A stretch of 55,621 nucleotides of DNA, the filler included, from Jimgerdemannia flammicorona (lineage: Eukaryota): NCBI GenBank assembly GCA_003990765.1. It is 2 parts of 2 records of this genome, joined end to end, with 100 filler letters (N's around TTAATTAATTAA, not from the genome) between each part and the next. Parts side by side here need not be neighbours in the genome. Positions count along the whole stretch, not along the records: positions 27,863 to 55,621 come from RBNJ01000607.1; 1 more part is not named here. One strand, given 5' to 3'. Shown here in pieces: positions 5,680-53,731 of the stretch. Below the pieces are notes generated by a model. The model saw only the letters and a program-made list of their open reading frames with translations, had not been told where the DNA came from and did not search any database. Position 1 is the first letter of the stretch. Each line of letters opens with the position of its first letter. The position numbers and the translations under genes were made by a program.

Positions 5680-5760
5680 ATCGATAGTTATCTATTACCA
5701 AAACATTGTAAAAAGTATTGTCTGAGTCTTGTGTCACCTGAATGTTACTGATGAAAGATG

Positions 5761-17800: not shown

Positions 17801-18131
17801 TGCTGGAACTATTTGAGAAAAATGTCCAAACGATGGATTGGAATCAAGTCGCCAGATTCCCCAAATAGGCTTAAAATCTCGTATGGAGGAATCCAAGTCA
17901 ATTCTGCACCGGAACATGACGTCGCACTATTCAACTGGCTCCTATGGCCTATCATTTTCTCGAGCCTCTTCCTTTCCATAAAATTGCGAAACGCGACCCA
18001 CGACCCGCGCAATGAAGCGTTTTTTTTTTTTTTTTCATGCACCTAAAATCCGCTCCGTCAACGTTACCAAATAAGATCTTTGTATTTTCTGTTTACAACT
18101 ACATCACAATCCCTTTAAAAACCTCTCTACT

Positions 18132-19732: not shown

Positions 19733-19799
19733 TTCGAGTCTAGTGGGTTTGAGTGAAATAGGTTCAAACGCGCCAAAATTCCAAAATTGTGGACTGGGT

Positions 19800-19822
19800 G
19801 TCACGTGGATGGCTGGCACGTG
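19800..19822. promoter_or_regulatory. Two CACGTG E-boxes about 70-90 bp upstream of the oxidoreductase ATG
   Basis: GTCACGTG at 19800-19807 and CACGTG at 19817-19822. A function as bHLH sites is inferred. Confidence 0.4.
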
Positions 19823-21104: not shown

Positions 21105-21226
21105 TAGAGATGGATAGGATCGAACCGATTACAAAAAAAAGTTCCAGAAATCCTTACCCAATGGATCGAATTATCGTTCACCTCCATAATCAACCGCAGT
21201 TCGATGGCGATCCGATCCAGTCTCTC
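21105..21226. mobile_element. Possible small MITE relic with about 17-bp terminal inverted repeats
   Basis: AGAGATGGATAGGATCG (21106-21122) vs CGATCCGATCCAGTCTCT (21208-21225). TAG start is hAT-like. No TSD found. Confidence 0.4.
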
Positions 21227-24200: not shown

Positions 24201-24559
24201 AAGTCGATGGGGTGGGAGGTGGGAGGAATGCATCAATCCTTCCTCCCCAACCCCGGAATCATCACAGCGACTTTGACCGGCCCAACTTGTAGAAGGTGTG
24301 CATTTATCGTAGAACTCCGTTCGTCGTCATCCAGCACCGCCGTCCACCAATAATCGCTTGTTCGGGGAAGAAAAGAAAAAGAGGAAGCCAGGAGAGACAT
24401 TGTTCTGTGACCCGCCGCATCAGCTCCTCGCGCCAAACGCCATTCGTTAAGTAGCAAGCAAACTTTCGTGGCAAGAAAAGAAAAAAAAAGAAAAAATCCA
24501 TCTCCGAGGTATTTACAGCCGCGCCATTTCCACACTCTGGCTCACCGCCCAGCACCATT

Positions 24560-26287: not shown

Positions 26288-27317
26288 TGTGACGTAAGAG
26301 TGACGCGGGAGGCGAGGTGTATACGCTTGTGTGGCTGGTATGTTGGGAGAGGGGGGGAAGGGTTGACGGCTAGCTGTTGCTTGGCTCTGGAAATTTAGCG
26401 TAGTAGTAGGAGCGGTTGTGGCTGCTACTGTTTTTTTTTTTTTTTGAGGGTGTAGGGAGGTTGTTGCTGCTCCTCAAGAGATGCGTTGCGATTGTTACGA
26501 CTTGTTTCGTGGAGGGTGGGTCGTGTGGGAGGATGGGCGAGGAGGTGGGAGTTAGCGTTATTTTTTTATTTTTTTGGGGTTCTTTCTTTCTTCCGACGTC
26601 GGTTGTCGTTCGTTGCGTTGCGTTGCAGTCGATGGGGGGGTAGTCGAGGGGAAGACCAGTCACATAAACCAAAGACTTGTCAAAACGTAAAGGCTCTTTG
26701 CCGGGGAATGCAAGGAGAGGGCCTGGTGGGCGGGGGACGTCTCGAGTTCGGACGGGGTGAGAGAGGGAGAGCGGACGAAGAGCGGAGGATTGGGGCGAGG
26801 CGTCGGTCTCAAAATATCGTCAAAGGCAGCCACCCTCGGTCGTGCAAATGAAAGAAAAGGCAAAGAGCGAAGATGAGGAGGCACTGTCACTTTTTCTGCT
26901 TGCGGCTGATCCAAAAAATTTTAACTCTCAATAATACACTCTGACAGAGAACAGTAGCACATGGGTGGATGATTCAGCATCATAATATGTCATACATATC
27001 CTGCCCTTGCCAACCAGGTTCTCTTGTTTACACACACACACACACATCACAACCCCACCCCTTGCATGACTGAATAATGAAATGAATGAAATGAAAATTT
27101 CGTCAGAGATCCACCCTTCCCAATACTTGTCCAATCTAGGTCATGTCAACTCCGACACCAGACACCGCGACCAGCCCAGCCCCTTGGAACCATACACATA
27201 CACAGATTTTCCGCCCCGCACCGGTGCTATGCATGAACTTAGTCTAAATTTTCCCTTGAGCGTGGGTGCCATATGATTACTTGTCTCATTTATTTCAATA
27301 TTTTTCAAAAAAGCAAC

Positions 27318-27862: not shown

Positions 27863-27879
27863 AAAAAAAAAAAAAGGAG

Positions 27880-29191: not shown

Positions 29192-29435
29192 TTCATGTGT
29201 CTTATTACAACACAATTCAATTGGGTGAATGGTCATCGAGGGTCTTCAACATTGCACTAACACATAGCACCATAATATCATTTCACGGGGAAATTTATTT
29301 GCGTACAATCCTAATTCAAATATTCTAACAATAATACGCCGCCACATCAATTTCAGCCGCCGCTCCCCTCACCCTGTTTTTTTTTTTTTTTTTTTTTTTT
29401 TTTGCTTCTCGACCCCCATCCGAAACTCCGATTAA

Positions 29436-30615
29436 CTACGCCGATACGTTCAATAAAATATTGCTACCCCCATTCTTCCCCCCGGAACTCGGCAGATACG
29501 TCACATTCTTCGCCTGTGCCAATGTCGACGCGATATCCTTGGACGCCTCAATGCGACGGAACTCAATCAGGCCCTCGCCGGCTTTTTCCAGGGCCTGCGA
29601 GATCAATTCTGCCGCCTGGGCGTCGCCTTCTGCACGGATGATGGAAGCCAATTTTTCTTGTTCGGCCTGTAATGGGGTGGCATTATATAGGCGTGAGATA
29701 AAGGTAACTTATTGGGAGGGGAGGCACCCGAAATAACGAATAAGCGGTGAAAGAAGATATCGACGCGGTGTATGTAAAGTTAGGTACCTTCTCAACAATA
29801 AATTTGGCTCGTTCAGCTTCCTGTTGCGCAATCTGTTTCTGTTCGACGGCGTTCGTGAAGTCTTTGCCAAAAGTCATGTGAGTCTGAATAAGGTAATAAC
29901 CAGTATCAGTTAATATTGCATCAATTATCCCCGGTCCAGAGAGTGTGTCTTTTCACGCCTTTTATCCAATCGAACCCTGTGTCATAGAGACAAAGGCAAA
30001 CGTGCAGAATAAAGCAAGGAGAAGACAACATACAATTGACACATCTTCTAACTGAATGTTGAACTCCATCGCCCTCTTTACGAGATCTTCCCTGATCCTC
30101 GACGACACAACCTCCCTCTGGGTGATCAGCTCACCCGCATCGAATTGGGCGACTATGCTCTTGAGTACCTCATTGCCGATGGAGGGGAGAACACGCTCAT
30201 CGTAGTCCATGCCCAGATTCTGGTAGATAGAGGGCAAGTGGGAGATCTCGGGCCTATGCAGAACGCGGAGGGTCAGCGAGACCATCTGCATGTCTTTCGA
30301 GCCGGTTGTTGTAGAGATGTTTCGCGGCTTTGTGCGCACGTCGAAGACCACAGCCCGCTGTAGCCAAGGGACCAGAAAGTGAGTGCCCTCACCAATGGAC
30401 TGCTGCTTAACACCTTGGATACGGTCGAAAATGACCGCGCGGTGGCCGCCTTGGACTAGAAAGTGGAGTGGTGAGAACAGAATGAGTTTTGGCAAGTAGG
30501 GTTTGGGGGGACTTTCAGTCCAGAACTCACCATCATACATTGCGAGCTGGACACCTCCGATGGCAGTACCGATAGGAATTGCCCACTTTGCGAGCTTCTC
30601 TAGGACGACGGCCAT
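29436..30615 (-). CDS. PHB1: Prohibitin 1 (mitochondrial SPFH/band-7 protein); 4 exons
   Basis: Exons 30615-30531, 30455-30034, 29883-29788 and 29666-29436, GT-AG. Motifs [66 protein letters not shown]. Confidence 0.96.
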
Positions 30616-32595: not shown

Positions 32596-34643
32596 TACCT
32601 TTCACCAGTAACATTCAGGTAACACAAGACTTAGACAATACTTTTGGCAATGTTTTTGATAGAAGGCAACTAATAACATAGATAGCAACAATTATACTGA
32701 TGAGTGTGTTTGGCTAGGAGAGCAGTAGTGCCTTTGACTGGCAGCATATAGAAAGGAGGAGTAGTGATGGTTTGGGAATACCAGGGCCTTCTATAGTAGG
32801 CCATGGTACTGGTAGTGGAGAAAGAGGCAGATTGAGACAATGAGAAGGAAAGAGGATGACCTTTGCAGATAAGGTCAAGATGGAGAGAATGGCATCCAGG
32901 CTGGATAGTTGGCTGGGCCTGGAGAAGTCTTCAACAGCTGCTGTTGGGAGGCAGGGAGGGGCTCTTTTGGGAGGGTTGGGCAGTAGGAGAGAGGGGGGAG
33001 TAGAGGCTGGAGATGTGACTGCTGATAGAGCTGTAACTGGGGATTTAGAAAAAAATCCAGATATGACAGTGGTTGGTAGTTCAGGACAGAGGGTGGGCAT
33101 GAGGCACAGAGATCTGGTGGATGGTATGACAGAATTGGTAGTAACACCATTGCTCAAGAAATCAAGGTCAGAATTTGCTGTCACATTGTACTTCCAAGGC
33201 TTAGTGGTAACTATAAGGATAATCTTAGGACTGGTGATACATGAGGTAAAGGGGATGGCTTTGGTGAAGTTCCTGAAGGGGAAAGAAGGGATCAAAGTTG
33301 AGTTTGAGAAAGAGGAGTCATTGTTGGTGGCCATGAAGAAGGGGGTAATGGTGGGAGGAGTAGTGGTCTCTATGGTCAGGTGCATACACTGAGACTCCTG
33401 AGTAGTATAGTTGATGGTACTGGATTTACCAATGGTGTCAAGGGAGAGAGTCAGAGAGTTGATTGTAGAAGTAGTCAAGGAGTATGGAGAGATAGTAGAT
33501 ATCAGGTTCAGAGTCTGAGAGAGTACTGAGCTCTAGACTAGAGACATTAATGTCCAGATAAGACTGGTTAGAAAGGAGAATACAGAGAAGATAAGGAACT
33601 GGTCAGTGTCTCTTAAGTGGGGCCCAGTGGAGTACAAGGTCTCATGGGTGAAAGGAATATAAGAGGAGGAGAAGGATTTGCTGGAGGATCTTGAGGATCT
33701 GGTAGGAGCAGTTGAGAAGAGATGGCTAGCTTAGAAGGAGTATGAAGCCAAGATGATGATAGAAATAGTAGATAGCAAGAGAATCAGGATGGACCAGGTA
33801 ATCTGGGAGAAGATGCAGGGAAGGTGAACTCAGAAGGAGCTGCTGGTGAAGTTGGGAGGCAGTGGAGCTAGCAGTAGTATAGGAGAAGATGGGGCAGGAC
33901 TGTAGGAGAGTGCCTGGGCTGGAGAGCCCAGAATGGCCCAAGATAGGGCCCAGGAGGGACTAAGTGAGGAGGGACAGGGTGGTATGGCAGTGGATATGGA
34001 AATGAGTAAGAGTATACAACCTCAGTATAGCATGCCAGGTGGGGCAGGGGGTGAGGAGGAATTGCTGGATGTACCTGAGGAAGAGTGGGATGAATTGGTG
34101 AGGAGAAGTGCTTTGGTGGACCTAGAGATGGAGGTTGAGAGGGTTGCTCAGAGTACTGCAGAGGCGGTGGATGAGAAGAAGTGGCTGTAGAAGGCTCTGG
34201 AGGGGGTGGCAGTAGAGGAGCTGGGGGGAGAGGACTTCCAGATCATAGAAGATCAATATTGGGAGGAAATTCTTTATGGTGAGAAGGTACTGAGGAAGGT
34301 TAGAAATGAGATTCTGATAGTACTCTTAGAATTAGTTGAGTACCAAGTAGATGATCAGTAGGAGGAGGAACTTTGTGTGATAGCAAATGACTAGGCGGTA
34401 TACTTATAGAATTCAAGGAAGGGCTTGGAGAAGTGGCAAGTGGTCTGTATGAATTATAGGACTAAAATGGAGGTGGTGGATGGGGTGGAGTGTCAGGAGA
34501 TCTTGGAGGCATTGGATGCTCAGGCTGTAGTGGAGGGTGATTTGGAAGTAGAGCAGCACTTGGATATAGCTGGGGATGAGATAAGTATGGAGTACTAGGC
34601 TGGGTTCTCAAATTCAAACATTATTCAATATAAATAGTATAAC
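32596..34643 (+). mobile_element. LINE family 1 copy D, 5' part (5' end, ORF1, first codons of ORF2)
   Basis: 5' motif TACCTTTCACCAGTAACATTCAGG. ORF1 fragments at 32856-33392 and 33933-34190. Interrupted at ORF2 codon 5 by the Gypsy element. Confidence 0.88.
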
Positions 34644-35416
34644 TGTAATAGAATTAACAAGTGAACAGGTGAGATGCGATGAGTAATTATGTGACCCAGC
34701 GAGTGATGACATCATCATATGATCAAGCATAGCATATAAATAACAAATAATGTAGAAAAATGATGTGAAAAACAATATTTAGCTTATCTCTAACAATCGG
34801 CACTGCAGTAACAGTTGCCATAGCAGCTGATTATTGCCTAGTAATTGAGGTCCTGATTACAAAATTGTTTTTACCAAAAACTACTTAACAAAGGTCACAA
34901 TTACAAACCTCATTATAGTTACCAAATTAGTCACTCATACTTAGTCAGAAATCATGAACCAACTTGTATAAATACCCCCCAGTTTCCATCTAAAATAAAG
35001 CAGTTTTAGTTTAGTCCTTGATACAAGAATCAAGTTCTCCCCACACATATACATTCCCCTGAGTCTTAGTAATGATATCTAAGTAACTTTAGTATTTCTG
35101 ACTAAACTCCAGAAGCCTAGCTAACTTCTACCAGAACTGAGACCAGTATGTAAATTCCCAAAGACTTAAGTAAACTCATTGAACCTAAATTCTAAGGTGA
35201 ATTCAGTCTATATACAGCAAAGGACAAGACCCTTGAAATAGGACAAAAGAGAAAGACCTTTGAAATAGAAGGCACTGCTGCTACAACTACTTATAAGCAA
35301 GTGCTTCCTCAAACTGAAGGCTTCTTGGTATACATTGTGTACTAAGTCTCTAAGTAATAGTCCACTTCCCTAATTATCCAAAGGATAAGAGAGGGGTAGA
35401 AGTGAGAGTTATTATA
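34644..35416 (+). repeat. 5' LTR (TATA box TATAAATA at 34967; terminal CA mutated to TA)
   Basis: Colinear with 49278-50050. Differences are almost all transitions. Confidence 0.95.
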
Positions 35417-35419
35417 ACT

Positions 35420-35431
35420 TGGTAGCAGCAG
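35420..35431 (+). promoter_or_regulatory. Primer-binding site TGGTAGCAGCAG (probably initiator tRNA-Met)
   Basis: Starts 3 nt after the 5' LTR. TGGTAGC is complementary to a ...GCUACCA tRNA 3' end, typical of eukaryotic iMet tRNA. Confidence 0.7.
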
Positions 35432-35499
35432 ATTACCAGTCAAGAAGGTACCAAGAACATACTCCTGAAGTTGGAACAAGACTAACCTTGGACAGGAGT

Positions 35500-37333
35500 A
35501 ACCCTCAGAACCAACTGTGGATCCTTAAACCAGAGCCAGAGAAGCCCTTGCCATTAGGACCAGGTGGTATCAGGAAACCACAGACCCAAGGACCCACTAG
35601 CTTGTAATTGACCAAGCTTACAAGGATCTATACTAGACCTTTAGGATATACCACCCAGAACTTAGGAATATTGTCAGCTGCCGTAAGTTCTATAAACTTC
35701 TCCATGGACATATTGGAATTACTAGGACTCTAGAATCTACTGCTGCAGCTACCCAGAATTTTCTATATTATATCACACTCTCTGCTGCAAGAGAAGTAGC
35801 TGCCAAGTGGATTGCCTCTAACAGATATCATCATACCCCTACCAAGACCTTCCTCTACTACAGGCTAGTTGTATACTATGCCTCTGCTATAACCAGATAT
35901 GAGAATGAGCAAGCAGGCCAGCCATCCCCTACTGCTGAACAAGAAGCAGACCCATCTACTCAGCCAGAGACTGATATCCTCTTTGAAGGACCTAGCCAGT
36001 ATGAGGACACACTATCTCATCAGAAAAGGGAGTCAGATAAAGACTCTACAGGTTACCAGTCTGACAATAGCTAACTAGGAATAGTAGGCCTAGAAATTTA
36101 TCAAGGAACCACAGGTCAAGAAGATCAGACCCCAGAACCAACCCAGCCACCTATATAGAGATTTGGTTTACCCTCTCTCACAGAACTCTTTGACCTGATA
36201 TCCAGGAATCAAGTAACTCCAAGTCATACAGCACCACAACCCCACCAAGCAGAACAATCTTCAGGAGAATCTACCCCAACAGACCCACTACCAATAGTCA
36301 ACACAATGGTAGATGTCAATATTGCAGCACTGACTACCCAGCTAGCAGCTCTAGCAGAGATAGTAGAACAAATTGCTGAATAAAACAAACCAACCAAGAC
36401 TCTGTAAATCCCAACATTCAGTAGAAAAAACAACAACATCGAAAACTTCATCAATGCAATTGATACAGACTACTGAGCAAACCAATGAAATGACAACTGA
36501 GTGCCTATAGGAATGCTCACCAACAACCAGAACAATACCCTTCAACAGCTGTTTGCTATATCAGCAGTACAAGTGAAAACAGTAGCCATATTCTTCACTG
36601 GAACAGCAACTGAATTCTGGTGAATCTTGGAACAATACTAAGTAACCTGGGAAGACTGCCCTCTAGTCAATAGACAAGCATCTGCCAACAATAAACCAGG
36701 TTGGGATGACTATGAAGCAGGCCCAGGACTCAAGGCCTTGCTACTGACCAAATTCTGAAATATGGCCTATATATAAGAAACTTGGAACAAACTGTCCCAG
36801 GTGAAGTTCCACAAGAATGGTGAGGAGGATCTAGAGACCTTTGCCACCAGAATGGATGCCTATCTCAAAACTGTTGGACTTACCTATTAAGAGAATAATT
36901 TGGCCATCAATGGTACTAGAGCCAACCACCTTTTTGCAGCTCTACCAGACTGGCTCACCCAGAAGATCAAGGAACAAGGGCTTTCCCAAGGATGCCCCCA
37001 CTACTCATGGTACTTTGCCCAAGTACAAAGAAGAGCTTGTGAAATCCTTGCTGCACAAGCCCCATGAAATCAAGAAAACAAGAAGGATAATAAAGATAGA
37101 AGGAATCCTACTAGAAGAAATGACCAAAGATATGATCAAAGGAATGATCAAAAGAACCAATAAAACCCCAGAGGACCCAGACCTCCTACTGAGGATGAAA
37201 AGAAGCAGCTCCATGAAAAGGAATTGTGCTTCATATGTAAGAAGGCAGGACACATCTCATTCAAATGTTCTGAGAAGAGAAACAGAGCAGGTGAATCTAG
37301 TAACCAGAACATTACTATTATTAGAGAAGGTCC
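35500..37333 (+). pseudogene. Gag with C-terminal CCHC zinc knuckle (CFICKKAGHISFKC)
   Basis: One frame (codons at 35643, 37224) with stops only of the TAA/TAG/TGA type derivable from CAA/CAG/CGA/TGG. IPTFS..IENFI gag-like motif. Exact start unclear. Confidence 0.85.
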
Positions 37334-37437
37334 AGGAAAGAAGAATCCTCAAAAGCACCTTTCTCTAGTAACATTCAGGTTACACAACCCTTTAGCAACA
37401 CTTTCAACACAGTTTCTGGAGAAAAGCTACTAGTATC

Positions 37438-39457
37438 ATAGTGATCAACGAGCATCTAGAGGTGCATACTGGGCAGGGTGGCCCTGGAGTGTTTGAATGG
37501 CAGCAAGTGGGGAGAGGCCCCAGCTTGGGGGGAAGTATGAGGGGCCTGCTGGCAGGGGGCCGCAGTAGAGGAGGGGACAGAGCTGGAGGTTGAGGGTCTG
37601 GCAGGGTGAGCTTTGTGGAGAAGGTGAAGGGGGGTTGGCAGGGAGCTGGACTGGAGAGCTGGCTGAGAGAGAGGAAGGTACTGGTGGCAGCTTCCAGGCA
37701 GCAACCTCTTGGGGGTACCTCTCTAGCGGGCCATAGGGATGGGGCTGGGGGGGTAGCGGCTGGGGCAGGGACTGCTGATGGGGGTGTGATGGGTGATCTG
37801 AAAAAAAATCTAGATGGGACTGCTGATAGTGAGCCGAGCGGTGGGAAGGGCACAAGGCCCAGGGACCTGGCGGATGGTGTAACGGGACTGGCGGTGGCTC
37901 CGTTACTCAAGAAGTTGATCTCGGCATTCGCAGTCACACTGTACTTCCAGGGCTTAGCGGTGACAGCAAAAATAGTGTTGGGGCTTATTGCTAAGCAGGT
38001 GGCAGGAGCGGCTTCGGTGAAGTTTCTGAAGGGACTGGAGGGGGTGGAGGTGGGATTTGAGGAGGTTGAACCGCTGGAGGAGGCGCTGAAGATTGGGTTA
38101 GTGGTTGGAGAGGTGTGTATTCCAATGGCAAGATATTTGAAATGGGATCCGAGGGTGGTCCAACTGCTGGTGAAAGGAGTATCCATGATGACAGCAATGG
38201 AGATGAGGAAGAGAGTGGAGGATGTCATGGCAGAGTATGGAGAGGTGGTGGATATTGGATTCAGGGTCTGGGAAGGGACCATGCTCAGGACTGGGGATGT
38301 GGATGTGAGGATTTGGCTGGCTGGGAAAGAGGCTACCAGGAAGATGAGGGACTGGCCTTCAGTATTGGTCTGGAGAGCTTTCCTGTGCAAGGTGACATAG
38401 GTGAAAGGAAGTGAAGAAGAGAAGGAAGATTTATTGGAAGTGCTGGAGGAGCTGGATGGGGCTGTAGAACAGCGAGCTAAGGCCTGGAAGACTTTCGAGG
38501 AGTCAATGCTCCTGGAGGTGGTGGATGGAAAGAGGATTCGAGTGGACAGGTGCAGTGGGAAAGGACTCAGGGACAGAAGAGACAGAAGGATCTGCTGGCT
38601 AAACTGGGGGGTGGACCACAGAAGGATGTGAGTATGAAGACAGGTGTAGAAGGGACCAGAGCGAGTGTCTGGGCTGATGAGAGGAGTGGGAATGATGGGG
38701 CAAAGTCAGGGAAGACTAAGGAGGCAAAGATTAGTGACCTATATGCTAATGGCACCTTGGAGGTTTGGGATGAAGTCTGGGAGAATTCCCCCACCCCTTC
38801 CCCTCTTATCAGGTGTGGCCCGGCTTCCAGGAACAAGACATGATGATGCTAGGGACCCAGCAGGTGAAATTTAGCATTCCGGAGGTATTGGATGGGGACC
38901 GAGTAGTGGTGGCAGGAGAGGAGAAACTGGTGGATGTCCTGGATGTGTGGGATGAGGACATGAGTGTGGGAGCTGATACCATAATGCTGGATGGAGGGAG
39001 GCCAGCGACCCCTGGTGGAAAGGAGGTGGGGAACCTACTTTGGATGTGCCAGATGATGAATAACCTGGCAGCAGAAGAGCTGGGGGAGGTGGACTTGCGT
39101 GGGATGGGTGATGAGCACTGGACAAGAATTTTGCAGGGGGAAGGAGTGGTGATGGCGATGAAGGCGGAAATTCTCACAGTGTATCTGGAGGAGGAAGGGT
39201 ATGAGGCAGATAAGGAGAGGAAGGCGGAGTTGGTGGTGGTCGCTGGAGAGAAGGCTGAGTACTGTTGGAACAGGTGTCATGGGTTGCAGCTTTGGCAGAA
39301 GGCTTGCATTAAGTATCGAGAGAATTTTGAGGAGAAGGCTGATGAGGAGATGAATGAGCTGTTGGCTGGACTGGAGGCTCAGAGGGCTGAAGAGGAGGAG
39401 GTGATGGCTGAACATAATCTGGATATGGCGCAGGAGGAGAGGGGCATGGAGCAGTAG
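37438..39457 (+). pseudogene. LINE copy G ORF1 (start ATG decayed to ATA), disrupted
   Basis: Fragments 37606-38400, 38401-38631 and 38813-39457. Copy E retains the ATG at the homologous site. Confidence 0.85.
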
Positions 39458-39487
39458 GGATTGATTGAGAACAAACTGTATTTTACT

Positions 39488-42400
39488 ATGAACAGTACAA
39501 CCAACATTTTTTCTTTGAATGTGAATGGGCTGAGGGACGCAGTTTGATGCAGGAACATTTTTATTTGGTTGAAGAGATTGGAGGCCGATCTCTTCCTCTT
39601 GCAGGATGTCAGGTGCGAGGATGATGCTGATAGGATGGAATGGACTAAGGAATGGGGTGGTATGGCGATTTGGAACAGCAAGGTCGAGATTCTGGTTTGG
39701 AAAGACAGAGGGGAGATAAAGGATGTGAGGAGCTGGGGAGAGAGACTGGTCTGGGGTGAGTGGATTCATACAGGTTGGGAGTCAGTCACAGTTGGCTCCT
39801 GTTACTGCCCTGCTGTGTGGGGGGAGTGTGTGGATTGGGTGAAAGGGCTCCTGGAGAGTGGGATCCTTGCTGAAGCTGGGTTGGATATGCTTGGAGGAGA
39901 TTTCAATATGGTTCGGGATGTATGGCTGGATAGAACTGATGGAGGATGGGGTGCAGAGAGCAGGAGTGGGGGGTTAGCAACATGGGAGGAGGTTGAAAGG
40001 CTAGGAGCACTGGTGGATGCTGGTAGGGAGCACTGGGGGGACAGGAGGGTATATACGCATTGGGCTGGAGGTCTGGGGACAAGGATTGACTGGATTCTGA
40101 TGGCTGACTGTTGGGGCTGTAATGTTTGGAAGGTGATAGAGGTAGAATGGTGTCCATGGTCAGATCATTGGGGCCTCTTGGGACAGGGGTGTTTTGGGGG
40201 AAGTAGAGATGGGCCTGGACATTGGTGCCTAAATTCCTCCTTGTTGGATGATGAGGCCCAGTGAGAGGAGTGGGCGAATGACATTCAGCTGAAGGTGGCG
40301 AATTGGCGGCAGGAAGGGGCCATGATTGGGGTTCGGTGGATAAGGATGAAAGAGATGGCCAGGATATATTGGAGTGAGGCTGGCAGAGTGGCTGAGAAGT
40401 AGCGAAGGTGGAAAGTGTGTTGGGCTTCTACTAGACTGGCAAGGCTCCTGGAGGAGTGGGTGAGACTGGCAGCAGTGGAGGGAGAAGAGGATTGGAGAAT
40501 AACAAGGGTGAGGATGGAGGTTGGGGAACTGCAACAGGTGCTGTGGGAAGAGGAAGAGTCAAGGGTGCAAGGCCTAGTGGCATGGCTTCATTGGCAGGAG
40601 CTGGAGGAAGGGGAGAGGCCTTCCAAGTTTCTCACAAGGACACTTCGAGCGAGAAGGGTACAGCAGTGATGGGAAGGGGTACTTGACTCGGATGATGTAC
40701 TAGTATATGGTGTACAGGACATCCTTGGAACACTGAAGGCATGATGGAGTGGATTGTGGAGTGAGAAGGAGGGTGGGGCAGATGCTACAGCCATTGACCA
40801 ATCATTAGAAGACTGGCACCCACCACAAGCTGAGGGACTAGGTGACCTGGTGATGCCTGTAAAGGAGGACGAGATCCACCAGGTTCTTGCTGCGACAGCC
40901 TTGGGTATGGTGCCTGGGGAGGATGGCCTCCCCTGGGACTTCTGGAAGCGAATGGTTGGAGTCCCGGGCATATTGGGGGAGTTGACAGCACTGTGTGACT
41001 CTATATTGCAGTCAGGGAGATGGGTGGGGGAGCAAGACCTTGGGCTGGTAACGCTGCTTTATAAGAACAAGGGAAGGCGAGAGGATTGGAAGAACTGGCG
41101 GCCAATAATGTTGCTAGATATGGACAGGAAGTTGGTGACTAAGGTGGTGGTCGCAAGACTACAGAAGGTAGCCCAGCAAATTGTGGGTGCTGAGCAGAGG
41201 GGCTTCATAGGGGGTTAGCTTATTAGAGATGGTACAGCCTGGGTACATAGAGTTATTGAAGGTGCTCGAGCCTGTGGACTAGATGGGCATCTTGTCTTCT
41301 TGGATCAGGAGAAGGCTTATGACCGGGTGCGGCAAGTCTGGCTGGCAAAAGTGTTAGATAGAATTGGAGTTCCAGGCCCATTTCGGTCAGCAATAGTCAG
41401 CCTACTGGAAAGGAGTAGGGCTGTACTCGTGTGCAATGGGCATTGAGGGGTGGCTTTCCCACTGGGTAGGGGAGTGCCCCAGGGGGACCCACTGTCCCCC
41501 ATTTTGTATGCTCTGTCCTTGGAACCTCTAATGGACAGGATTTGGCGGAAGATCATGGGGCTCTCTATCTATGGCATTGGCTGGAAGGTTGGAGCCTTTG
41601 CGGACGACATGGTGGTTGGTTTGGGAGTGACTGCAGATGTCAAGGAGCTCCAGAAGACAGTGGAGTGGTATGAGGTGAACTCTGGGGCGAAGCTGAATTG
41701 GCATAAGTGTGAAACAATGGTGCTGGGCAATGGCTTGGTGGGCAGAGAAGTTATTGAAACAATTGTCCCCACCGGAGAGGCAGTGCAGTACTTGGGCATC
41801 TATTTGTCGGTCTATGGGTCTGTTTTGCCCAGGCTGTGGTAGGAGCAGAGGATTGGAATTTGGGAGGAGAACTTGCAGGGTTGGGGGGGGTAGACACTTC
41901 TCTCTGGCTGGAAGGATCTTGATTTTGAATGTATACTGGCTGCCAAAGCTGTGGTATTTGGCCTATCATCTGGACTTCCCAGCCTGAGTAGTGAAGAGAT
42001 TGGTGAAGGTGGCCAAGGGATGGATTTGGGCTGGCAGATGGAGTCAGATTGGTTGAGAGACTTTGTCCCTACTGGTGGCATGAGGTGGTCTTGGGCTGGT
42101 GGACTTCCTCAAAAGACTACACTGCTTGAGGGCTTGGTGGCTGAGGAGGGCGGTGGAGTTGTATAGAGGGAGCTGGGTCCTCCTGCTGCAGAAGATATGG
42201 GAGAGGTGGACATTGCCTAGAGGCTTGACTGGTGATCTTCTTTCATTAGTTGGGCTTCAGAACACTACGCAACTGAGATATAAAGGCTTCTGGTGGGGGA
42301 TAGCCGAGGGGGCACACCACATTGGTATTCACTGGCAAGGGGATGAGGGGGAGAGGGCTTGGGGCCCAGTGATGTGGAGATGGAATAGCATTCTTCTGGG

Positions 42401-43145
42401 AGGCATACCTTTACTGGAGTTCAACATTAGTGATGGCATCGAGTGCCAAAGGGGTCCAGGCCAGGATCTGTGGCCTAGTGGTTGGCAAGGAGTTGGAATT
42501 GGTGAGAAGTGGGACTGGTATGGGGTTTGGACCTAGAGTGCCACAGTGAAAAATTGGATGCTGCCAAAGTACTGGGTAGTCTGGTTGCATGTGCTGAGGA
42601 GGAATATGATGCTAAACTTCCACTCAGGACACCTTGTTGTAGGGGGCTGCTTTAACTGCGAGGAGTGCCATAATGTAGGGCAGGAAGGGGGATTGGTACA
42701 GATGCCAGAACATTGGCTAGGGGAGTGTGAGGTGTTGGGAGACTTTTGGCAGGCCATTGGGAACTGCTTGGGGGTGAGGCATAGGGGTGATGATGTACGG
42801 GAGAGGTGGGAGGACCTGAGGGATCGATTGATAGGAGGGGTAGGGGAAGAGTGGATTACTCTAGGCTGGGCATTGGCTATTTGGGTTGGGCTGGCCAGAT
42901 ACTGGCTATTTGTATTTGAGGAGGAGAAGCGACAGAGCTCAGGGAGCCAGTTGGCAAGGTGGCAGTTCCTTATGGAAGATACCTTGATAGGCTGGTGGCT
43001 TGGTTGGGGACTGCAGGGGGGTTGAAAGCGCCACTTGGTGGTGAAAATCTGTGGTCAGAGTGGTGGGAGAGTTGGAGTTGTTAGTGAGAGGGTGGTCTTT
43101 ATACGTGAAGAAGTGGGGTGGGGCCCCCCGATGGGGATCGGATAG
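39488..43145 (+). pseudogene. LINE copy G ORF2: APE endonuclease, RT, C-terminal CxxCxxC..HxxxxC motif; disrupted by stops
   Basis: SLNVNGL, LLQD, GGDFN, TRIDWIL, SDH; PGEDG, WRPIMLL, DQEKAYD, QGDPLSP, AFADD, YLG; CFNCEECH...EHWLGEC. Confidence 0.93.
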
Positions 43146-43236
43146 TGGGTGGTGTTATTGTATACTTATTCATAGACTGGTAATAAAGATGGAGTCCAAG
43201 AGACTATAAAAAAAAAAAAAAGGAAAGAAGAATCCT

Positions 43237-43659
43237 GAAAATGTCATCAAAGTACAGAAGATATGATATAAGACTATCATCCCTACTAAGGCCCACCCAA
43301 CTGATGCTAGATATGACCTCTACAGCAGTCAAGATCTCACTATTCTACTAAGTACCAATGCTACAGTGCAAACAAGGATTGCAATACAAGCTCCCAAAGG
43401 TACATACATCTACCTTACCAAGTGAAGCAGTCTAGCCAAAGAGTTTAACATTGGACTAGAAGGAGGAGTAGTTGACCAAGAATTTACTGGTGAAATCTGT
43501 GTCATCTTGCGAAATTTTGAAGACATATCATTTGAAGTCAAAACAGGCCAAAGGATTGCCCAAGCAATCATTGAAGAAATCCATCAAAATCTCACCATTG
43601 AAGAAGTCTCTGAGCTCTCTCAGACAGACCATGGCAAGAAAGAATTTGGATCTACCAAT
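43237..43659 (+). pseudogene. dUTPase domain of the Gypsy polyprotein (trimeric type, motifs I-V)
   Basis: DARYDL (AGYDL), K*SSLA (RSSLA), GVVDQEFTGEI, GQRIAQ, TDHGKKEFGST (RGxxGFGST). Confidence 0.92.
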
Positions 43660-43980
43660 AAATCTCTCAGTCAAAAGGTCACTACTATGAAAGAAGATAA
43701 TGAAAACTGGTATAAGAGAATTGTAGATGGTTATGCACTATGTGGACAATGCCCTCATTCTATTCAAATGTACTGTATGGAACATGTTGGTGAATGCCAT
43801 GCATGTCTCTCCAAAGTTTTCAAAATTCAATCCGAGAAGTACCAAGCCCAACAGGCTGAGAAATCCAAATAAGACAACTCTCCTTATGAAGGATGGGAAG
43901 AAACTGACTTCAAGGAGACTGAAAGCAATTGGGACAATAATGAGGATGAAGAGCTCAACACTATCAAGAAGAAGAATAGT

Positions 43981-46900
43981 TACATCAAGTTCACAGGTCA
44001 AGTCTACAGACAGAATGTCAATGTCTTGCTTGATAGTAGTGCTTAGTGCTCCCAACGAATCAAATCGAATCGAATTTGACCCAAACTCGATTCGATTCGA
44101 TCAAATCAAGGGTCCAATTCAATTCAATTTGAATCAAATCAAAGGTCCAATTTGATTCAAAGTTCGATTCAAACCTTAATTTTCAAAATGTAATAACTCG
44201 ACGAAAACTCATCCAAATTTAATATATTTTAGCTTGTTAGATTCATCGTATTAATGTGATTCTAACAAGCTAAAGTACATTAGATTTGGATGAGTTTACG
44301 CTGAGTTATTGCAATTTGAAAATTAGGGTTTGAATCAGACCCTCAATTCAATTTGACTTTTGATTCTATTCAAATTGATTTGAATTGAAAAATCCCCAAT
44401 TCAATTTGACTCATTTAACCCTTAATTCAATTCGATTCGAATTGATTTGACTCATTTGGAAGCACTAGTAGTGCTACTGGAAACTACATCAGCACTAAGA
44501 CCACTAAGAGAATTGGAGCCCGAAGCAGACCAGCCACTAAGAAAAGAAGTGTCACCTTTGGTGATGGTAAAACTGCACCATTGACCAAGATCTGTGAAGA
44601 TCTCTTACTCAAGATTGGCAAATATCAAGAGAAGTTGGATTTCAGCATTGTAGATCTCCCAAAACAAGACATTATCCTAAGAAAAGCCTGATTGACCCAG
44701 TACAACCCAGATATCAACAGGAGAACCAATGAGGTTGACCTGACCCATAAAGGCAGAAAGATCACCCTGATACCCCAGGAAGGTACCAACTACCAAGGAA
44801 TCAAAATCATCTCTGCTATTCAAATGAAAAGACTCTCTCAAAAAAAGGGAAATACCTACTTCATCTGTATAGTATAAGAAGTCACTGAAGCTACAACTAG
44901 CCCAATCCCAACAGAAGCCTAAGAACTATTTGAAGAATTCCAAGATGTATTCCAAGATCCCCAAGGACTTCCACCCAAGCGCCAAATCCAATATAGAATT
45001 GATCTTATTCTAGGATCTGAACCCCCATACAAGAGTATCTATCAACTGGCCCAATCTGAGCTCAAGACTCTCAAGGATGAATTGACCAAACTACTGACCC
45101 AAGGATATATTAAACCCAGCCACTCTCCATTTGGAGCCCCCATTCTATTTATCAAGAATAAGGATGGCTCTCTGTGAATATATATTGACTACAGAGCCCT
45201 CAACAAGATCACTATCAAGAATTAGTATGCCTTGCCTAAGATTGATGAGTTGCTACACCAAATTTTCAAGACTAAGACCTTTTCTCTACTAGACTTGCAA
45301 AATGGCTACCACCAGATTCTCATTGATGAGAAGGACATTGAGAAGACAGTCTTCTGAATATAGTTTGGACATTATCAGTTCTGAGTCATACCTTTTGGTT
45401 TGACCAATACACCAGCAATATTCCAGTATCTGATGAATGATATCTTTGAACCACTCCTCAACATCTGTGTCCTTGTGTATATTGATGATATACTAATCTA
45501 CAGCGAAACAGTAGAGCTATACTATACCTATCTCAGACAAGTACTGATCCTTCTGCAAGAACACTAGCTCTATGCTAAGATAAGTAAGTGTAAGTTCTAT
45601 CAAGACCAGATTGAGTATCTAGGATATATCATCTCTGCTGAAGGCATCAATGTGGACCCCTGAAAGGTATCAGTCCTTAAGGATATCACTATCTCCACTA
45701 CTCTCAAGCTACTTTAGTGCTTCCTAGGTATTGCTGATTATTACCAAAGGTTTATCCAAGAATACTCTGCTATTGTAGCTCTACTGACCAGCTTGGCCCA
45801 CAAAGGAGTAAATATCAAAGCTGAATGGACTCATGAATACACTCTGGCTATAGACCATCTCAAGAGACTCCTTACTGAGGCCCCAGTATTAATTGTACCT
45901 GACCCTACCAGGCCATTTACTCTGATCACAGATACCTCCGATATTGCTATTGGGGTAGTACTCAGCCAAGAAGATTGCTCAGTGGCCTACCTTTCCCAAA
46001 AACTCAAACCAGCTGAGACCCAGTATACCACCCATGAGAAGGAACTTCTGGCCATTGTTACTGCACTCCAGGAATGGTGCTATTTCCTCCTAGGACAACC
46101 TTTTGTGGCCTACACTGATCACTATGCTCTGTGGTATATTCACACACAGTCTATGCTGATCCATAGACAAGCCTGCTGGATGGAAATCATTGCCAACTTT
46201 GATATATATTTTAGGCAAAACCAACCATGTGACTGATGGTTTCTCCAGATATATGGAAGATAAACTTATCTTCATGGTCAAGATAATTGGAGACCTTACC
46301 CAAATGATCAAGGATGGCTACTAGCAAGACAGCCCCCTGATGAAATTCCTTCAATTCTGCTAAGACCCAAAGGCCAAGATCCCAGAGCCCATAAGGCAAA
46401 TGTCTAAGAGATTCACTTACCATGATGGACTTATCTACAGAGACCATGACAGAGTGGTTGTACCCAACAATAGTACTCTGCAACTCCAGATTATGTAGGA
46501 ACTCCATAATACTCCTGCAGGAGGACATTTTGGTTTTGAAAAAACCTACAACCTCCTCTTAAGAGAGTTCTACTGGTCAAAGATGACCAAGGACATCAAA
46601 GACTTTGTGGCTTCATGTGGGATGTGCCAAAGGTTCAAAAGTGATAATAAGCTACCAGCAGGACTCCTACAACTGCTACCAATTCCAAGTCACAACTGGG
46701 ATCAGATTGCAATAGACTTTATTGTCTAACACCCCAAGACCAAGGTAGGATGGGATGCCATTATGGTATTTGTAGACTACCTAAGTAAACAAGCCCATTT
46801 TGTACCCATCAAGACTACTGCTACAGCACCAGAGATTGCTGAGATTTTTCTCAATCAAGTATTCAGGCTACATGGCATGCCTAGCACCATTGTATCTGAC

Positions 46901-47788
46901 TGAGATGTCAAGTTCACAAGCAACTTCTGGAAGGCATTCTTCTCTCTCTATGAAACTAAGCTGAAGTTCTTTACTACCTACTATCCTCAGACCAATGGTC
47001 AAACTGAGTGAACCAACAGGACTCTCAAACAGATGCTTAGCATCTTCTGCTGTTACAAGCAGAATGATTGGGATAAGTACCTAGCCCATGCTAAGTTTGC
47101 CTACAACAACAGTTAGCAAATATCTATGAAGAAGACTCCATTCTTCCTGAACCATGGTCAACACCCGAGGACTCTGAGTACTACTGTGAAATCAGCAGTC
47201 CCAGCAGCCCAAGATCTGACTAAGATCATTTCTGATCTTACTTGAATAATAAGAGATGCTCTCATAGAAGCACAAGATCACTAGACCAAGTATGCAAATC
47301 TGAAGTGAAGAGAAGCCTCCTACAATATTAGTGACATGGTCATACTTAGAACAGACCACCTCCACCCTAATACCCTGGCACAACAACCAGCCAAGAAACT
47401 TTGTGCTAGAAGAATTGGACTATACAAGATTATGGAAAAAGTCAGCAAAGTCAACTATAAGTTGCAACTTCCCCACAATATCTGAGTATACCTAGTATTT
47501 CATATCAGTCAATTGGTGAACTACTATGAGAACTCATTCTCTGAGCATACAGTTCCACCACCACCCCCAATTAGGATCAATAATCATGAGAAATTCGAAA
47601 TTGAGGAAATACTTGACCACAAGGTCTGCAAATATCCCAAAACAGTCAAGCAGTTTTTCCTGATCAAGTGGAAGGGTTACCCCATCCATGACACCACTTG
47701 GGAAAAAGAAGAAGCTCTGAGGAATGTATGCAAAGCTCTCCAGAACTATATAGAAACACTCACCCCCCAACAAAGGAAGGAACTATAG
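43981..47788 (+). pseudogene. Pol: aspartic protease (split by MITE), RT (YIDD about 45478), RNase H, integrase (HHCC, core), chromodomain
   Basis: LLDSS(G)A|TGNYIS; SPFGAPILF..KDGSL*IYIDYRALN; PFGLTN; ITDTSD..HEKELLAIV; H..GGHFG..CGMC; FEIEEILDH..FLIKWKGYPIHDTTWE. Confidence 0.93.
44044..44467. mobile_element. hAT-type MITE (424 bp) inserted in the protease active-site motif
   Basis: TIRs TAGTGCTCCCAA / TTTGGAAGCACTA, 8-bp TSD GTAGTGCT (44036-44043, 44468-44475), subterminal TCGAA/TTCGA repeats, and a central palindrome at about 44166-44337. Confidence 0.93.
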
Positions 47789-48366
47789 CTCTAAGAATTA
47801 GAGCATATAGTGAGCAGAAGGATACTATATATTTTATCCAGAAATATATAATACCAAATATTGAAAAAGGAACACTATGGATAACTAATAAGAAGATACC
47901 CAAGAAAAGGACAATCTAGTATAGTACAGCAAAATGCATTTGAACAACTCCATTTCATACCATCTATGTTATCTCTGCTGGATGATGATAAATACTTCAT
48001 ATGGAACTTAGGAAAGCTGACAATGTTGAAACCAGTCTAAGTCCATCCATATGACAGATATTGTTACTAGGAATTGCTTTAGATTACAAGAAAGTCTATT
48101 TCCAAAAAGTTCAAATCCCCAGCCATAATAATGGGAGCCCTTGCCCTAGACAAGAATGGCCAGTCCTTACAAATATGCCAACCAGACAAAAAAAAAAATA
48201 GACCAAGACCTGTTAACCCTGTGTAACCACAACTATAAGTGATATGTAATATCTTTGAAATCAGGATTTTCTCATGTGACCAGCATATGCCCCACTTATA
48301 GTAATAGATCACACATTTTGCTAAAAAGCATGACTGAAAGAAGATCACACCAGATAGATAAATAAG

Positions 48367-48374
48367 TATAAATA
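48367..48374 (+). promoter_or_regulatory. Internal TATA box (GTATAAATACCC, same context as the LTR TATA) upstream of the accessory ORF
   Basis: 12-mer identical to that at 34966-34977 in the LTR. About 70 bp upstream of the inferred ORF start. Confidence 0.55.
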
Positions 48375-48438
48375 CCCAAGGTAAGAATACCCCACAACTC
48401 TCATCCCCCTCTCCTCATAAAGAAAAGACAAGACAAGA

Positions 48439-49242
48439 ATATCCACTACTTACTGCCAAACTGTCCACTATAGCCAGCCCCTCCTAAGCTAGGTTGACTG
48501 CCTCTTTGGACATATCCAGATTGCTATCTAAGGAAGGAACCACCACTCAGAGGCCCTTAACCTCTCCAGCTAGAACCTAGGACATTATGTCCTTAACTAT
48601 CATGAAGTCATCGAAAGAGCCTACCTTGCCACCAGCCACCTAGAGATCTAGTATGAATACAAGATTGGCCATCAACTCCTCCAATGGGCAAAGAACCTGC
48701 CCACTGACCAAGTCTCAGAATGGACCCACCTGGACAGATATGAGCAAAGACTTACCAAGAAGGTCCATCAAATCATGTACCATGTACTCTTTGCAATCCC
48801 CAACCTCAACTATGTCCAACTGAAGGATTTCCAGAACCTCTCTTTCTCTGAGATTGATGAACTTGAGATCAAGGTAGCCCAAGAAGCCAACTCCTGGATC
48901 TCTCTCAAGTCTACTGACTGCAAACCCTACTGGAGCCCCCTCCTGAATGACAACCCAGACCAATGGCTCCAAGGCCTCTCTGATCTCTTTGAAGGATCAC
49001 CTATCTGAATAGATATTCCCAGACATAAGGATCAAGAACTCTACTTGGATGGTCCCAACTGCATCAGATGGAGAACTCCTATACCAGTGCCCATCCCAAT
49101 GCAAGAACCATTTGCAGACCTCATTAACTTCTCCATCCTGGACAGTGAGTCATCAGCAACCACCTCCCCTGCTACTGAAGAAGATGGTGACAATCCTGAG
49201 GAAGAGTCTCCACCTTTCTCTCTCCTGGTTCTCAATTTCTAA
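48439..49242 (+). pseudogene. Accessory ORF (about 267 aa) of unknown function between chromodomain and 3' LTR
   Basis: Single frame joining ORF-track pieces 48775-49008 and 49045-49242. All five internal stops fit C>T/G>A. Start ATA is probably a decayed ATG. Acidic C-terminus. Confidence 0.7.
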
Positions 49243-49264
49243 ATTAATGAGAATGTTGATTTCT

Positions 49265-49277
49265 AAGGAGGAAAGGA
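49265..49277 (+). promoter_or_regulatory. Polypurine tract AAGGAGGAAAGGA
   Basis: Immediately precedes the TG of the 3' LTR. Confidence 0.85.
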
Positions 49278-50050
49278 TGTAATACAATGAATGAGTGAAC
49301 AGATAAGATGTGATGAGTGATCACATGACCCAGCGAGCAATGACATCATCATACAATTGAGTGTAATATATGAATAACAAACAATGCAGAAAAACAACAC
49401 AAAAAATGATATTTAGCTTATCTCTGACAATCAGTACCATAGCAATAGTTGCCACAGTAGCTGATCATTACCTAGTAATTGAGATCCTGATCATAAAGTT
49501 GTTTTTACCAAAAACTACCTGATAAAGGTCATAATCACAAACCTCATTATAGTTATTAAATTAGTCACTCATACTTAGTCAGAAATTGTAGACCAATTTG
49601 TATAAATACCCCCCAGTTTCCATCTGAAATAAAGCAGTTTTAGATTAGTTCTTAATATAAGAATCAAGTCCCCCCTCCATATACACATTCCCCTGAGTCT
49701 TAGTAATGACACCTAAGTGACTCTAGTGTTTCTGACTAAACTCTAGAAGTCTAGCTAACTTCTGCCAGAACTGAGACCAGTATATAAATCCCCAAAGACT
49801 TAAGTAAACCCATTGAACCTAAATTCCAAGACAAATTCAGTCTGTACACAGCAAAGGACAAGATCTTTGAAATAGGGCAAAAGAGAAAGACCTTTGAAAT
49901 AGAAGACACTGCTACTACAACTACTTATAAGTGAGCACTTCCTCAAACTGAAGGCTTCTTGGTATACATTATGTACTAAGTTTCTAAGTAATAGTCTACT
50001 TCTCTAATTATCCAAAGGATAAGAGAGGGGTAGAAGTGAGAGTTATTACA
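49278..50050 (+). repeat. 3' LTR
   Basis: TGTAATA...TATTACA, colinear with the 5' LTR. Confidence 0.95.
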
Positions 50051-50692
50051 ATAACTAAAATATTCTCTTTGAATATGAATAGGTTGAGAGAGGCAGCTTG
50101 ATGAAAGTACATATTTGGTTGGCTCAAGAAATTGGATACAGATCTCTTCTTACTATAGAATATATATTATAAGGTAGATGTGGACTTACAGAATTAGACT
50201 AGGGAATGAGGGGGGGGCAGCTATGTAGATTGGGAGGATGGGTATCCTAGTTTGAAAGGGGATGGGAGATATTGGAGATATTGGACAATGAGGGAGTCAG
50301 TTGGTATAGAGAGTTTGGAAGAGGCCTGGTTGGAGCCCTTTGACAGTTAGATCATGTTATTGCCTAGCAAAAAGAAGAGAACAGGTAGATTGGATCAGAA
50401 ATTTGAGAGAGACTGGTGTCTTGGGTGAGACAGAGATCAACTGCCTGGGGGGGGATTTTAATGTAGTGAGAGATAATATGGTGAACAGGACTGATAGTGG
50501 GAGAGGAATGAGGAGCAGAAGTGGTGGGTTAGATGATTGGATGGAGATGAAGAGATTGAGTTCTTTGGTTAACTCAGAGAGATAGTTCTGGGAAGAGTAT
50601 CAAATTTATACTTATTGGGTAGCAGGGCTGAGTTCCAGGATTGACTGGATATTGACAGCAGAGTGCTGGGGAGCAGATATCTATACAATAAC
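50051..50692 (+). mobile_element. LINE copy D continuation (endonuclease domain)
   Basis: Resumes the ORF2 start (..TKIFSLNMNRL), GGDFNV, SRIDWIL. Joins seamlessly to 34643 after removing the LTR element and one ATAAC. Confidence 0.88.
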
Positions 50693-50866
50693 TATAATAT
50701 AGCAGTTTCCTGATAGTGTTACTGGTAGTGGCCCAATGATATCTATTGCAATGTGGTGGAAGGGGATAGGCTCAATTCTTGATAATCCAGGTGTCTGGTC
50801 TTGCTGATCTTATTTCTGTTTTTGGTATTTGTCACACCCTTTGACAAATTAGCACAGGTCTTCAGA

Positions 50867-53730: not shown

Positions 53731-53731
53731 C

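Follow-up and report, generated by a model that had tools for sequence, protein, structure and literature searches.

Canonical RIP, the RID/Masc1 system of Neurospora and other Pezizomycotina, acts before meiosis on duplications above ∼400 bp and 80% identity and gives strand-coordinated mutation clusters. A kingdom-wide screen found RIP-like repeat mutagenesis to be limited to ascomycetes and scored Jimgerdemannia flammicorona as 'no_rip' (PMC12543289). According to the available portions of the respective reports, Dim2 of Zymoseptoria tritici is a mitotic mutator that raises the transposon C>T rate more than tenfold, with >98% of new C>T changes at CA, CG spared, and rid and Dnmt5 present (PMC8016269); Tuber melanosporum has a CpG plus CpA signature with RID plus Dim2, and the rusts studied in the same work have Masc2/DNMT1-type enzymes (PMC4352252). 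The available parts of further accounts attribute the loss of CpG in Austropuccinia psidii to deamination of 5mC (bioRxiv 10.1101/2025.05.29.656941) and describe TpCpG hypermutation of transposons in Pucciniomycotina (PMC3318451) and, in Phycomyces blakesleeanus, 5mC almost only on repeats in CG and CHH but not CHG contexts, with DIM2 and DNMT1 present (PMC11258239).

The window analyzed here, 55,621 nucleotides from the J. flammicorona genome with filler included, contains a Ty3/gypsy chromovirus, recognized by its LTRs with a 5-bp target duplication, its RT-RNase H-integrase order, and its chromodomain (Table 1). The PHB1 product is 100% identical over 143 aa to J. flammicorona (Endogonales), which places the host outside Dikarya, as a preliminary description of this DNA had supposed. 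The chromovirus interrupts an older repeat, both parts of which match 3092-5757 inverted at 76 to 78% identity, and it contains a younger LINE and a MITE copy that keeps 13 of its 37 family CpG sites; a Pfam search of positions 36835-37365, in the gag part, gave no match. The CpG observed/expected ratio (o/e) follows this nesting, at 0.0 to 0.14 in the old repeat and LTR element and 0.14 to 0.29 in the nested LINE, and it changes sharply at the edge of the host gene island (∼17.7 to 17.9 kb). On four large contigs, CpG o/e is below 0.1 in 139 of 200 1-kb bins. The (CpA+TpG)/(ApC+GpT) ratio is 1.1 to 1.9 in most repeat bins and 0.45 to 0.82 only in the old block located at 14 to 17 kb.

Table 1. 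Features of the window
Feature	Positions	Strand	Evidence or remarks
Host gene island (alcohol dehydrogenase-like, bZIP genes), internal control	17900..27000	.	CpG o/e 0.9-1.1
Prohibitin PHB1, host placement	29414..30613	-	Normal CpG; spliced in public contigs
Older repeat, split by LTR insertion	32599..34643	.	Resumes 50051-50682
Left target-site duplication ATAAC	34639..34643	.	Read from sequence
5' LTR, 773 bp	34644..35416	+	CpG left = 3; terminal CA read as TA
Decayed gag region, CCHC zinc-knuckle pattern close to its end	36270..37350	+	Translation
Nested LINE	37356..43221	+	Endonuclease 39548-40261, RT 41447-41839, poly-A, target duplication ∼20 bp
dUTPase region of LTR element, motif ARYDL at 43306	43290..43870	+	PF00692, E 1e-14
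Protease active-site region, LLDSSA, interrupted by MITE	44026..44043	+	Translation
Hairpin MITE, 426 bp	44044..44469	.	6-bp target duplication AGTGCT
Reverse transcriptase and RNase H remnants, in-frame stops	45385..46233	+	PF00078, PF17919
Integrase zinc finger, Tf2-type SH3, chromodomain	46499..47785	+	PF17921, PF24626, PF00385
Purine-rich tract before 3' LTR, likely polypurine tract	49265..49277	+	Sequence; putative function
3' LTR, 773 bp	49278..50050	+	CpG left = 1
Right target-site duplication ATAAC	50051..50055	.	Read from sequence

The preliminary description had the LTRs as colinear and differing almost only by transitions, and they do align without gaps over all 773 bp, with 98 transitions and 4 transversions among 102 differences (Ti/Tv 24.5). 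Fifteen reciprocal CA/TG pairs account for 30 of the 98 transitions, and the remainder comprises CG versus TG (2), CA/TA (42), CC/TC (14), CT/TT (7), and mixed (3) changes; per available site, the rates are 42/103 at CA, 14/50 at CC, and 7/113 at CT. In a 32-copy LTR alignment, CG is present in some copies at 35 of the 36 column pairs having both TG and CA, so the reciprocal pairs mark old CpGs, as had been proposed. The CA>TA changes reported earlier extend to the LTR termini, TA in the 5' LTR and CA in the 3' LTR; the motif pairs quoted with them lie at 34656/49290, 34701/49335, and 34745/49379, and both motifs that had lost conserved Gly codons were located (Table 1). Changes are about equally divided between the strands in the two LTRs (29/29 and 22/18).

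Duplicated host kinase genes are 86 to 94% identical over 1.2 to 2.6 kb, include one pair 4 kb apart on a single contig, and retain their CpGs. Pooled over 6,532 columns, their Ti/Tv is 2.2 (310:139), quite unlike the 98:4 of the LTR pair (Fisher p = 3e-10). At 2.1% transversions the kinase duplicates share 528 of 617 CpG cytosines; transposon pairs at 2.4 to 2.6% transversions share none. Outside the main open frame, the duplicates differ at 7/87 and 7/96 CpG cytosines. The C:G>T:A excess is thus confined to repeats, and duplication is not a sufficient trigger in these genes, with the caveat that selection may have removed mutated alleles. CpG content is mildly reduced across the kinase family, with ratios of 0.6 to 0.9 in many 500-bp bins, and the closest kinase pair, with changes at 20/202 CG, 22/375 CA, 15/221 CC, and 5/286 CT, carries a faint echo of the transposon spectrum.

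That spectrum was determined from 30 copies each of the LTR, nested LINE, and nested MITE families (90 in total), the best-matching of 40 candidates that were scored in each family against mutated queries, with two CpG-rich copies as the LTR reference; no unmutated copy occurs among the 90 sampled. C>T frequencies at CpG, CpA, CpC, and CpT are 45.0, 13.6, 9.0, and 1.2% in the LTR, 31.4, 4.8, 3.2, and 1.2% in the LINE, and 29.0, 3.9, 2.6, and 0.46% in the MITE, an order common to three unrelated families and found again on four other contigs. The earlier claim that non-CpG cytosines were also hit therefore holds at CpA and CpC, although CpG is mutated 3 to 7 times as often as CpA even near saturation, and CpA is not the main target that it is in canonical RIP. 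The MITE involves no reverse-transcription passage and is only 426 bp, yet it is mutated as heavily as the 6-kb LINE, with ∼0.42 hits per C at CpG, which is ∼240 times its T>C frequency (13/7,332 cells, 0.18%) and ∼90 times that at CpT; its private transversions number 24/12,751. That so short an element escapes mutation, with a CpG o/e of about 1, was considered and rejected, as the MITE started out rich in CpG and 57% of its sites are now gone. MITE CpG loss does not correlate with flanking CpG (rho 0.22, p 0.25; 30 flanks), a comparison that is uninformative because nearly all of the flanks are CpG-depleted.

CpG mutation in the LINE is highest at ACG (45.5%), followed by CCG (30.6%) and GCG (30.2%), and lowest at TCG (25.4%), and in the LTR it is 33.3% at TCG versus 37 to 54% in the other contexts, such that neither family prefers a 5' T. 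CA and CC are mutated more before a pyrimidine (4.9%) than before G (3.1%); CHA mutation is 2.5%, not above CHG, and a plant-like CHG-type preference was rejected.

The mutations accumulate gradually and independently on the two strands, as seen in the nesting order, the pair series, and the strand tests. Copies show no strand heterogeneity (p 0.28 and 0.72 for the LTR; 0.74 and 0.84 for the LINE) and no strand-coordinated runs at CA/CC (same-strand neighbors 0.645 to 0.665 versus a null of 0.642 to 0.651), although many mutation rounds could blur such a signal. All LINE events pooled are slightly clustered (2,670 close pairs versus 2,633 ± 10 at 50 bp), and an apparent clustering at CA/CC (912 versus 868) disappears once per-copy loads are kept. 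A caveat to gradual accumulation is that LINE copies are over-dispersed in the CpG they have lost (28 to 52% kept; chi2 131.5, 29 df), with a borderline result for the MITE (p 0.052); age and subfamily structure could account for this, but so could bursts.

The suggested search for DNMT homologues yielded three DIM-2-type methyltransferase genes (G000 contigs C8187, C11271, and C3657) with a DL(F/Y/C)CGGG motif I, PCQ, and ENV. Protein P0123 matches 9bap/9baq, which we take to be Neurospora DIM-2, at E 4e-47 and DNMT1 at 6e-31; a HMMER search of representatives succeeded, and a close relative carries the name Dim-2. Endogone also contains a match to C11271. The N-terminal frame of C11271 had no match among longer proteins. 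A tree contains 18 of 28 chosen proteins (10 were dropped for want of the motif-I pattern) and no DNMT1 or RID outgroup, so clade membership is beyond its reach. Pfam, protein, and pattern searches found no RID/Masc1, a weak negative given the fragmented assembly, the exon-wise search, and the reading in context of 6 of 52 matches to a wider PPCQ pattern. One locus from that pattern (C58) is DNMT2-type, and none of the six matches read in context is a methyltransferase. A DNMT1 motif pattern had no matches, and the six matches to a DNMT5 pattern were all rejected as retrotransposon RT. A TDG/MUG-like glycosylase gene fragment with putative T:G activity is present on G000 contig C34337.

Methylation-driven decay fits these data better than does the classical RIP of ascomycetes, and we consider it probable that transposon chromatin receives DIM-2-type methylation and that its methylated cytosines are then gradually deaminated, at CpG ∼200 times faster than background; the LTR pair would record what happens throughout the genome. 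Methylation would fall mainly on CpG, less on CpA and CpC, and hardly on CpT, most likely through the three DIM-2-type enzymes, and methylated cytosines would convert to T singly and on both strands after insertion, presumably by deamination. CpG would be lost first and then CpA and CpC, with old blocks becoming AT-rich with a CT/AG excess, and targeting would follow transposon or heterochromatin identity and not the presence of a duplicate alone. The preliminary description spoke of a methylation-driven or RIP-like defense; the methylation-driven half stands as the likely reading because CpG-first mutation is confined to repeats and DIM-2-type genes are present, and RIP-like describes the outcome but not the mechanism, as gene duplicates are spared, strand coordination is absent, and the (weak) searches found no RID. 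True RIP, in which homology would prompt a diverged, CpG-first RID-like enzyme to mutate any duplication during the sexual stage, would agree with the Ti/Tv of the LTR pair and of another LTR-type pair (up to ∼80), the sharp edges at genes, the lack of unmutated copies, and the over-dispersed LINE load. It is nonetheless unlikely, for in addition to those three findings, CpGs are retained in the duplicates even outside the main open frame, the short MITE is mutated like the LINE, and 37,472 repeats that are 1 kb or longer and 95 to 100% identical are counted for the species (PMC12543289 supplement).

Editing of retroelement cDNA or transposon DNA by a methylation-independent, APOBEC/AID-like deaminase would likewise produce C>T dominance including non-CpG contexts, but the LTRs diverged after integration with the strands about equal, the MITE spectrum is identical in kind, and preference is CpG-first and set by the 3' base, making this the most improbable of the readings. 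More serious, if still somewhat doubtful, is ordinary passive decay of dense 5mC in a slow-dividing fungus, where deamination depends on time and the replication errors used as the yardstick are rare; this assessment overlaps with that of the preferred reading, as the passive form is counted within both. Events are independent on both strands, and the LINE order ACG > CCG = GCG > TCG is that of spontaneous 5mC deamination. Against this, MITE CpG is mutated ∼90 times as often as CpT, though unmethylated CpT cytosines also deaminate over time, and the glycosylase fragment may repair T:G mismatches. Mammalian CpG excess is 10- to 15-fold, and as the CpG rate here is well above this, plain deamination may not suffice; the rate leans toward assisted or poorly repaired deamination. 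The available part of the Austropuccinia account gives the passive explanation for that genome (bioRxiv 10.1101/2025.05.29.656941). Within methylation-driven decay, a tentative possibility is that transposon chromatin is actively mutated, independently of RID, by the three DIM-2-type paralogues, which would both methylate cytosines and drive their deamination, one DIM-2 paralogue serving CpG in a genome that would lack DNMT1 and DNMT5. If so, repeat mutagenesis through DIM-2 would be older than either Dikarya or RID, and homology sensing, as in canonical RIP, would have been added later.

Compared with the systems described above, and within the available portions of their accounts, J. flammicorona resembles Z. 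tritici in its Dim2-type enzyme with catalytic motifs, transposon-confined C>T changes, and non-CpG contexts, but CpG dominates, CpC is also mutated, and RID, DNMT1, and DNMT5 were not found in our searches. It shares with Austropuccinia and Tuber a large transposon-rich genome and a CpG-first loss rising with element age, read as methylation followed by deamination, but these are Dikarya, and neither the CpA > CpC >> CpT tail nor a set of three DIM-2-type paralogues is noted in the parts of those accounts available. As in Pucciniomycotina, transposon hypermutation centers on CpG, but TCG is here the least mutated CpG context. Phycomyces belongs to the same phylum and has DIM2, and the higher CA/CC mutation before pyrimidines is reminiscent of its methylation; the match is partial because CHA is no higher than CHG, and Phycomyces has DNMT1 and, in the available part of its account, no reported hypermutation. 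Canonical RIP shares the repeat-confined C:G>T:A excess, mutated CpA, and sharp gene edges, but not the CpG-first order.

Repeat cytosines in this early-diverging mycorrhizal fungus thus mutate tens to hundreds of times faster than background despite the 'no_rip' score, with sampled genes and recent gene duplicates largely spared, and the CpG >> CpA > CpC >> CpT order is missed by AT-rich k-mer and CpA-based indices. Defense is separated from homology sensing, as gene families are still able to expand, and the origin of RIP, together with the question of whether DIM-2 alone acts as a mutator, can be addressed in a member of Mucoromycota. In genomes of this kind, insertion ages calculated from LTR divergence come out many times too high unless they are based on transversions; the LTR-type pair with the highest Ti/Tv has two transversions in 2,057 columns, and eight repeat pairs, including the present LTR pair, are changed at 18 to 59% of CA, 12 to 61% of CC, and 1 to 17% of CT sites.

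Hypermutation of repeat cytosines is real, strong, and genome-wide in Jimgerdemannia flammicorona. Comparison of the two LTRs in the window gives 98 transitions and 4 transversions (102 differing sites), upholding the positions, colinearity, and almost exclusive transitions of the preliminary description, and the LTRs derive from a single insertion, because ATAAC borders the element on both sides. The reciprocal CA/TG and CA>TA changes described there are also present, with 15 CA/TG pairs (30 of the transitions) and 42 CA/TA, 14 CC/TC, and 7 CT/TT transitions, the last three at 41%, 28%, and 6% of available sites; the load is roughly equal between LTRs and between strands. CpG o/e is below 0.1 in 139 of 200 1-kb bins (200 kb, four largest contigs), and seven further repeat pairs picked from this four-contig sample have the same context order; in an LTR-type pair with 2 transversions over 2,057 columns, 22% of CA and 15% of CC sites nonetheless differ.

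Features of the window and methyltransferase genes (L-numbered loci) elsewhere in the genome (G000)
Feature	Location	Size	Remark
Minisatellite	12866-13121		15-bp unit; units vary by C>T/G>A-type changes
Contig junction (C606/C607)	27763-27862		two 44-base N runs
Piece of another LTR-type repeat	27876-28869		CpG-free
5' LTR	34644-35416	773 bp	gapless against 3' LTR
LINE nested in LTR element	37356-43221		younger insertion
dUTPase of gypsy element	43290-43870		between gag and protease
MITE nested in LTR element	44044-44469	426 bp	younger insertion
Decayed extra sequence past chromodomain	47900-49200		no Pfam match (one frame tried)
3' LTR	49278-50050	773 bp	gapless against 5' LTR
Two more LINE copies	50865-55621		87-88% and about 70% identity to nested LINE
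DIM-2-type gene, L035	C8187		catalytic motifs; GNPCQ
DIM-2-type gene, L039	C11271		catalytic motifs; GNPCQ
DIM-2-type gene, L036	C3657		catalytic motifs; GCPCQ

The element, a Ty3/gypsy chromovirus-type retrotransposon, retains remnants of dUTPase, RT, RNase H, integrase, SH3, and chromodomain and is inserted within an older repeat. CpG o/e is 0.9 to 1.1 in a gene island (18-27 kb), 0.14 to 0.29 in the nested LINE, and ∼0 in older repeats; in the oldest block (14-17 kb) the loss extends to CpA/TpG, and GC content is 22 to 28%. On contigs C1981, C4232, and C1117, LTRs of this family are adjacent or ∼3 kb apart, possibly as tandem or non-autonomous forms.

Polarised spectra of three families are similarly ordered. 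In the LTR family (32 copies aligned; 30 loci fetched among 42 matches, with 40 of 2,269 candidates scored), with two CpG-rich observed copies as reference, C>T affects 45.0% of CpG, 13.6% of CpA (which may include old CpGs), 9.0% of CpC, and 1.2% of CpT sites, and T>C 0.2 to 1.4%. The LINE values (30 of 40 matches, counted only with an unchanged 3' neighbour) are 31.4%, 4.8%, 3.2%, and 1.2%, and CpG mutation in this family is heaviest in ACG and lightest in TCG. For the MITE (30 of 40 full-length matches) they are 29.0%, 3.9%, 2.6%, and 0.46%, with T>C at 13/7,332; 43% of its CpG sites are intact, equivalent to ∼0.42 hits per C, and private transversions are at 0.19%. Relative to T>C, the MITE rates are ∼240-fold at CpG, ∼20-fold at CpA, ∼15-fold at CpC, and <3-fold at CpT. 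No unmutated copy occurs among the sampled copies, a sample leaning to near matches of mutated queries.

The PHB1 exon (143 aa) is 100% identical to J. flammicorona prohibitin-1, the next match being Endogone (91%); the host is thus in Endogonales, Mucoromycota, and ordinary RIP in a Pezizomycotina host, raised in the preliminary description, does not apply. Pfam, RFD, and protein searches, run exon by exon on the fragmented assembly, yielded three genes bearing DIM-2-type motifs and one gene of the DNMT2 type, and no RID, DNMT1, or DNMT5, a weak sign of their absence. Protein P0123 and the C11271 N terminus match 9bap/9baq, which we take to be DIM-2, better than DNMT1, and a related protein bears the name Dim-2. 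A TDG/MUG-like uracil-DNA glycosylase gene fragment (L120) lies at the end of contig C34337.

The most likely mechanism is methylation of transposon chromatin by DIM-2-type enzymes, with the methylated cytosines then lost singly; the spectrum, its confinement and gradation, and the presence of the enzymes are observed, and we infer methylation itself, its assignment to these enzymes, and the chemistry. Of the weight given to this reading, roughly half falls to passive decay, in a fungus that divides slowly, and slightly less than half to an enzyme-assisted mutator. Counting against methylation and decay, CpG loss is over-dispersed among LINE copies (borderline for the MITE), all LINE events jointly are clustered 1.4% above expectation at 50 bp, none of the sampled copies is unmutated, and the CpG rate exceeds that of mammalian passive deamination.

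Canonical RIP is improbable as the source. Strand bias shows no difference among LTR or among LINE copies, neighbouring CA/CC events share a strand no more often than chance once site rates and per-copy loads are kept constant, and the lack of a RID hit in the exon-wise searches is weakly adverse. Kinase duplicates (150 matches, 70 loci examined; best 70 viewed of the 211 alignments that reach 400 bp and 78%) also argue against it: four selected alignments of 86 to 94% identity, one of them between copies separated by 4 kb on a single contig, have a pooled Ti/Tv of 2.2 and share 528 of 617 CpG cytosines at 2.1% transversions, whereas transposon pairs of equal transversion age share none. Against such sparing, the kinase genes are mildly CpG-poor and the closest pair has a faint CG > CA, CC > CT order, and selection may have filtered mutated alleles. 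The changes are most likely a variant of methylation-linked repeat mutagenesis rather than canonical RIP, and of the methylation-driven or RIP-like defence first proposed, the former part probably stands. The kinase genes belong to an expanded tyrosine-kinase-like family (L121-L190, e.g., L151, L157, L168, and L172; contig C5862) and are followed by tandem units of ∼180 to 190 bp with normal CpG.

RIP-like signatures are confined to ascomycetes, with J. flammicorona scored 'no_rip', in PMC12543289; its repeat-versus-non-coding enrichment test is probably blind to CpG depletion in a mostly-repeat genome. RIP has been suggested for Zoophthora radicans on the basis of a RIP index (PMC11105155), so proposals of RIP-like signals outside Dikarya already exist. 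Other background comes from PMC8016269, PMC11258239, PMC4352252, PMC3318451, PMC5751038, PMC13297926, PMC10386755, and bioRxiv 10.1101/2025.05.29.656941. No account of this spectrum in Endogonales was found among the publications listed by the literature searches; the original Endogonaceae genome paper may bear on novelty.

Two public contig sets spliced at PHB1 contain LTR-family pieces corresponding to 34801-35643, with depth reaching ∼670; at positions that read T or A in the window, these pieces mostly carry C or G. If these sets are RNA, as we guess, less mutated copies may be transcribed.
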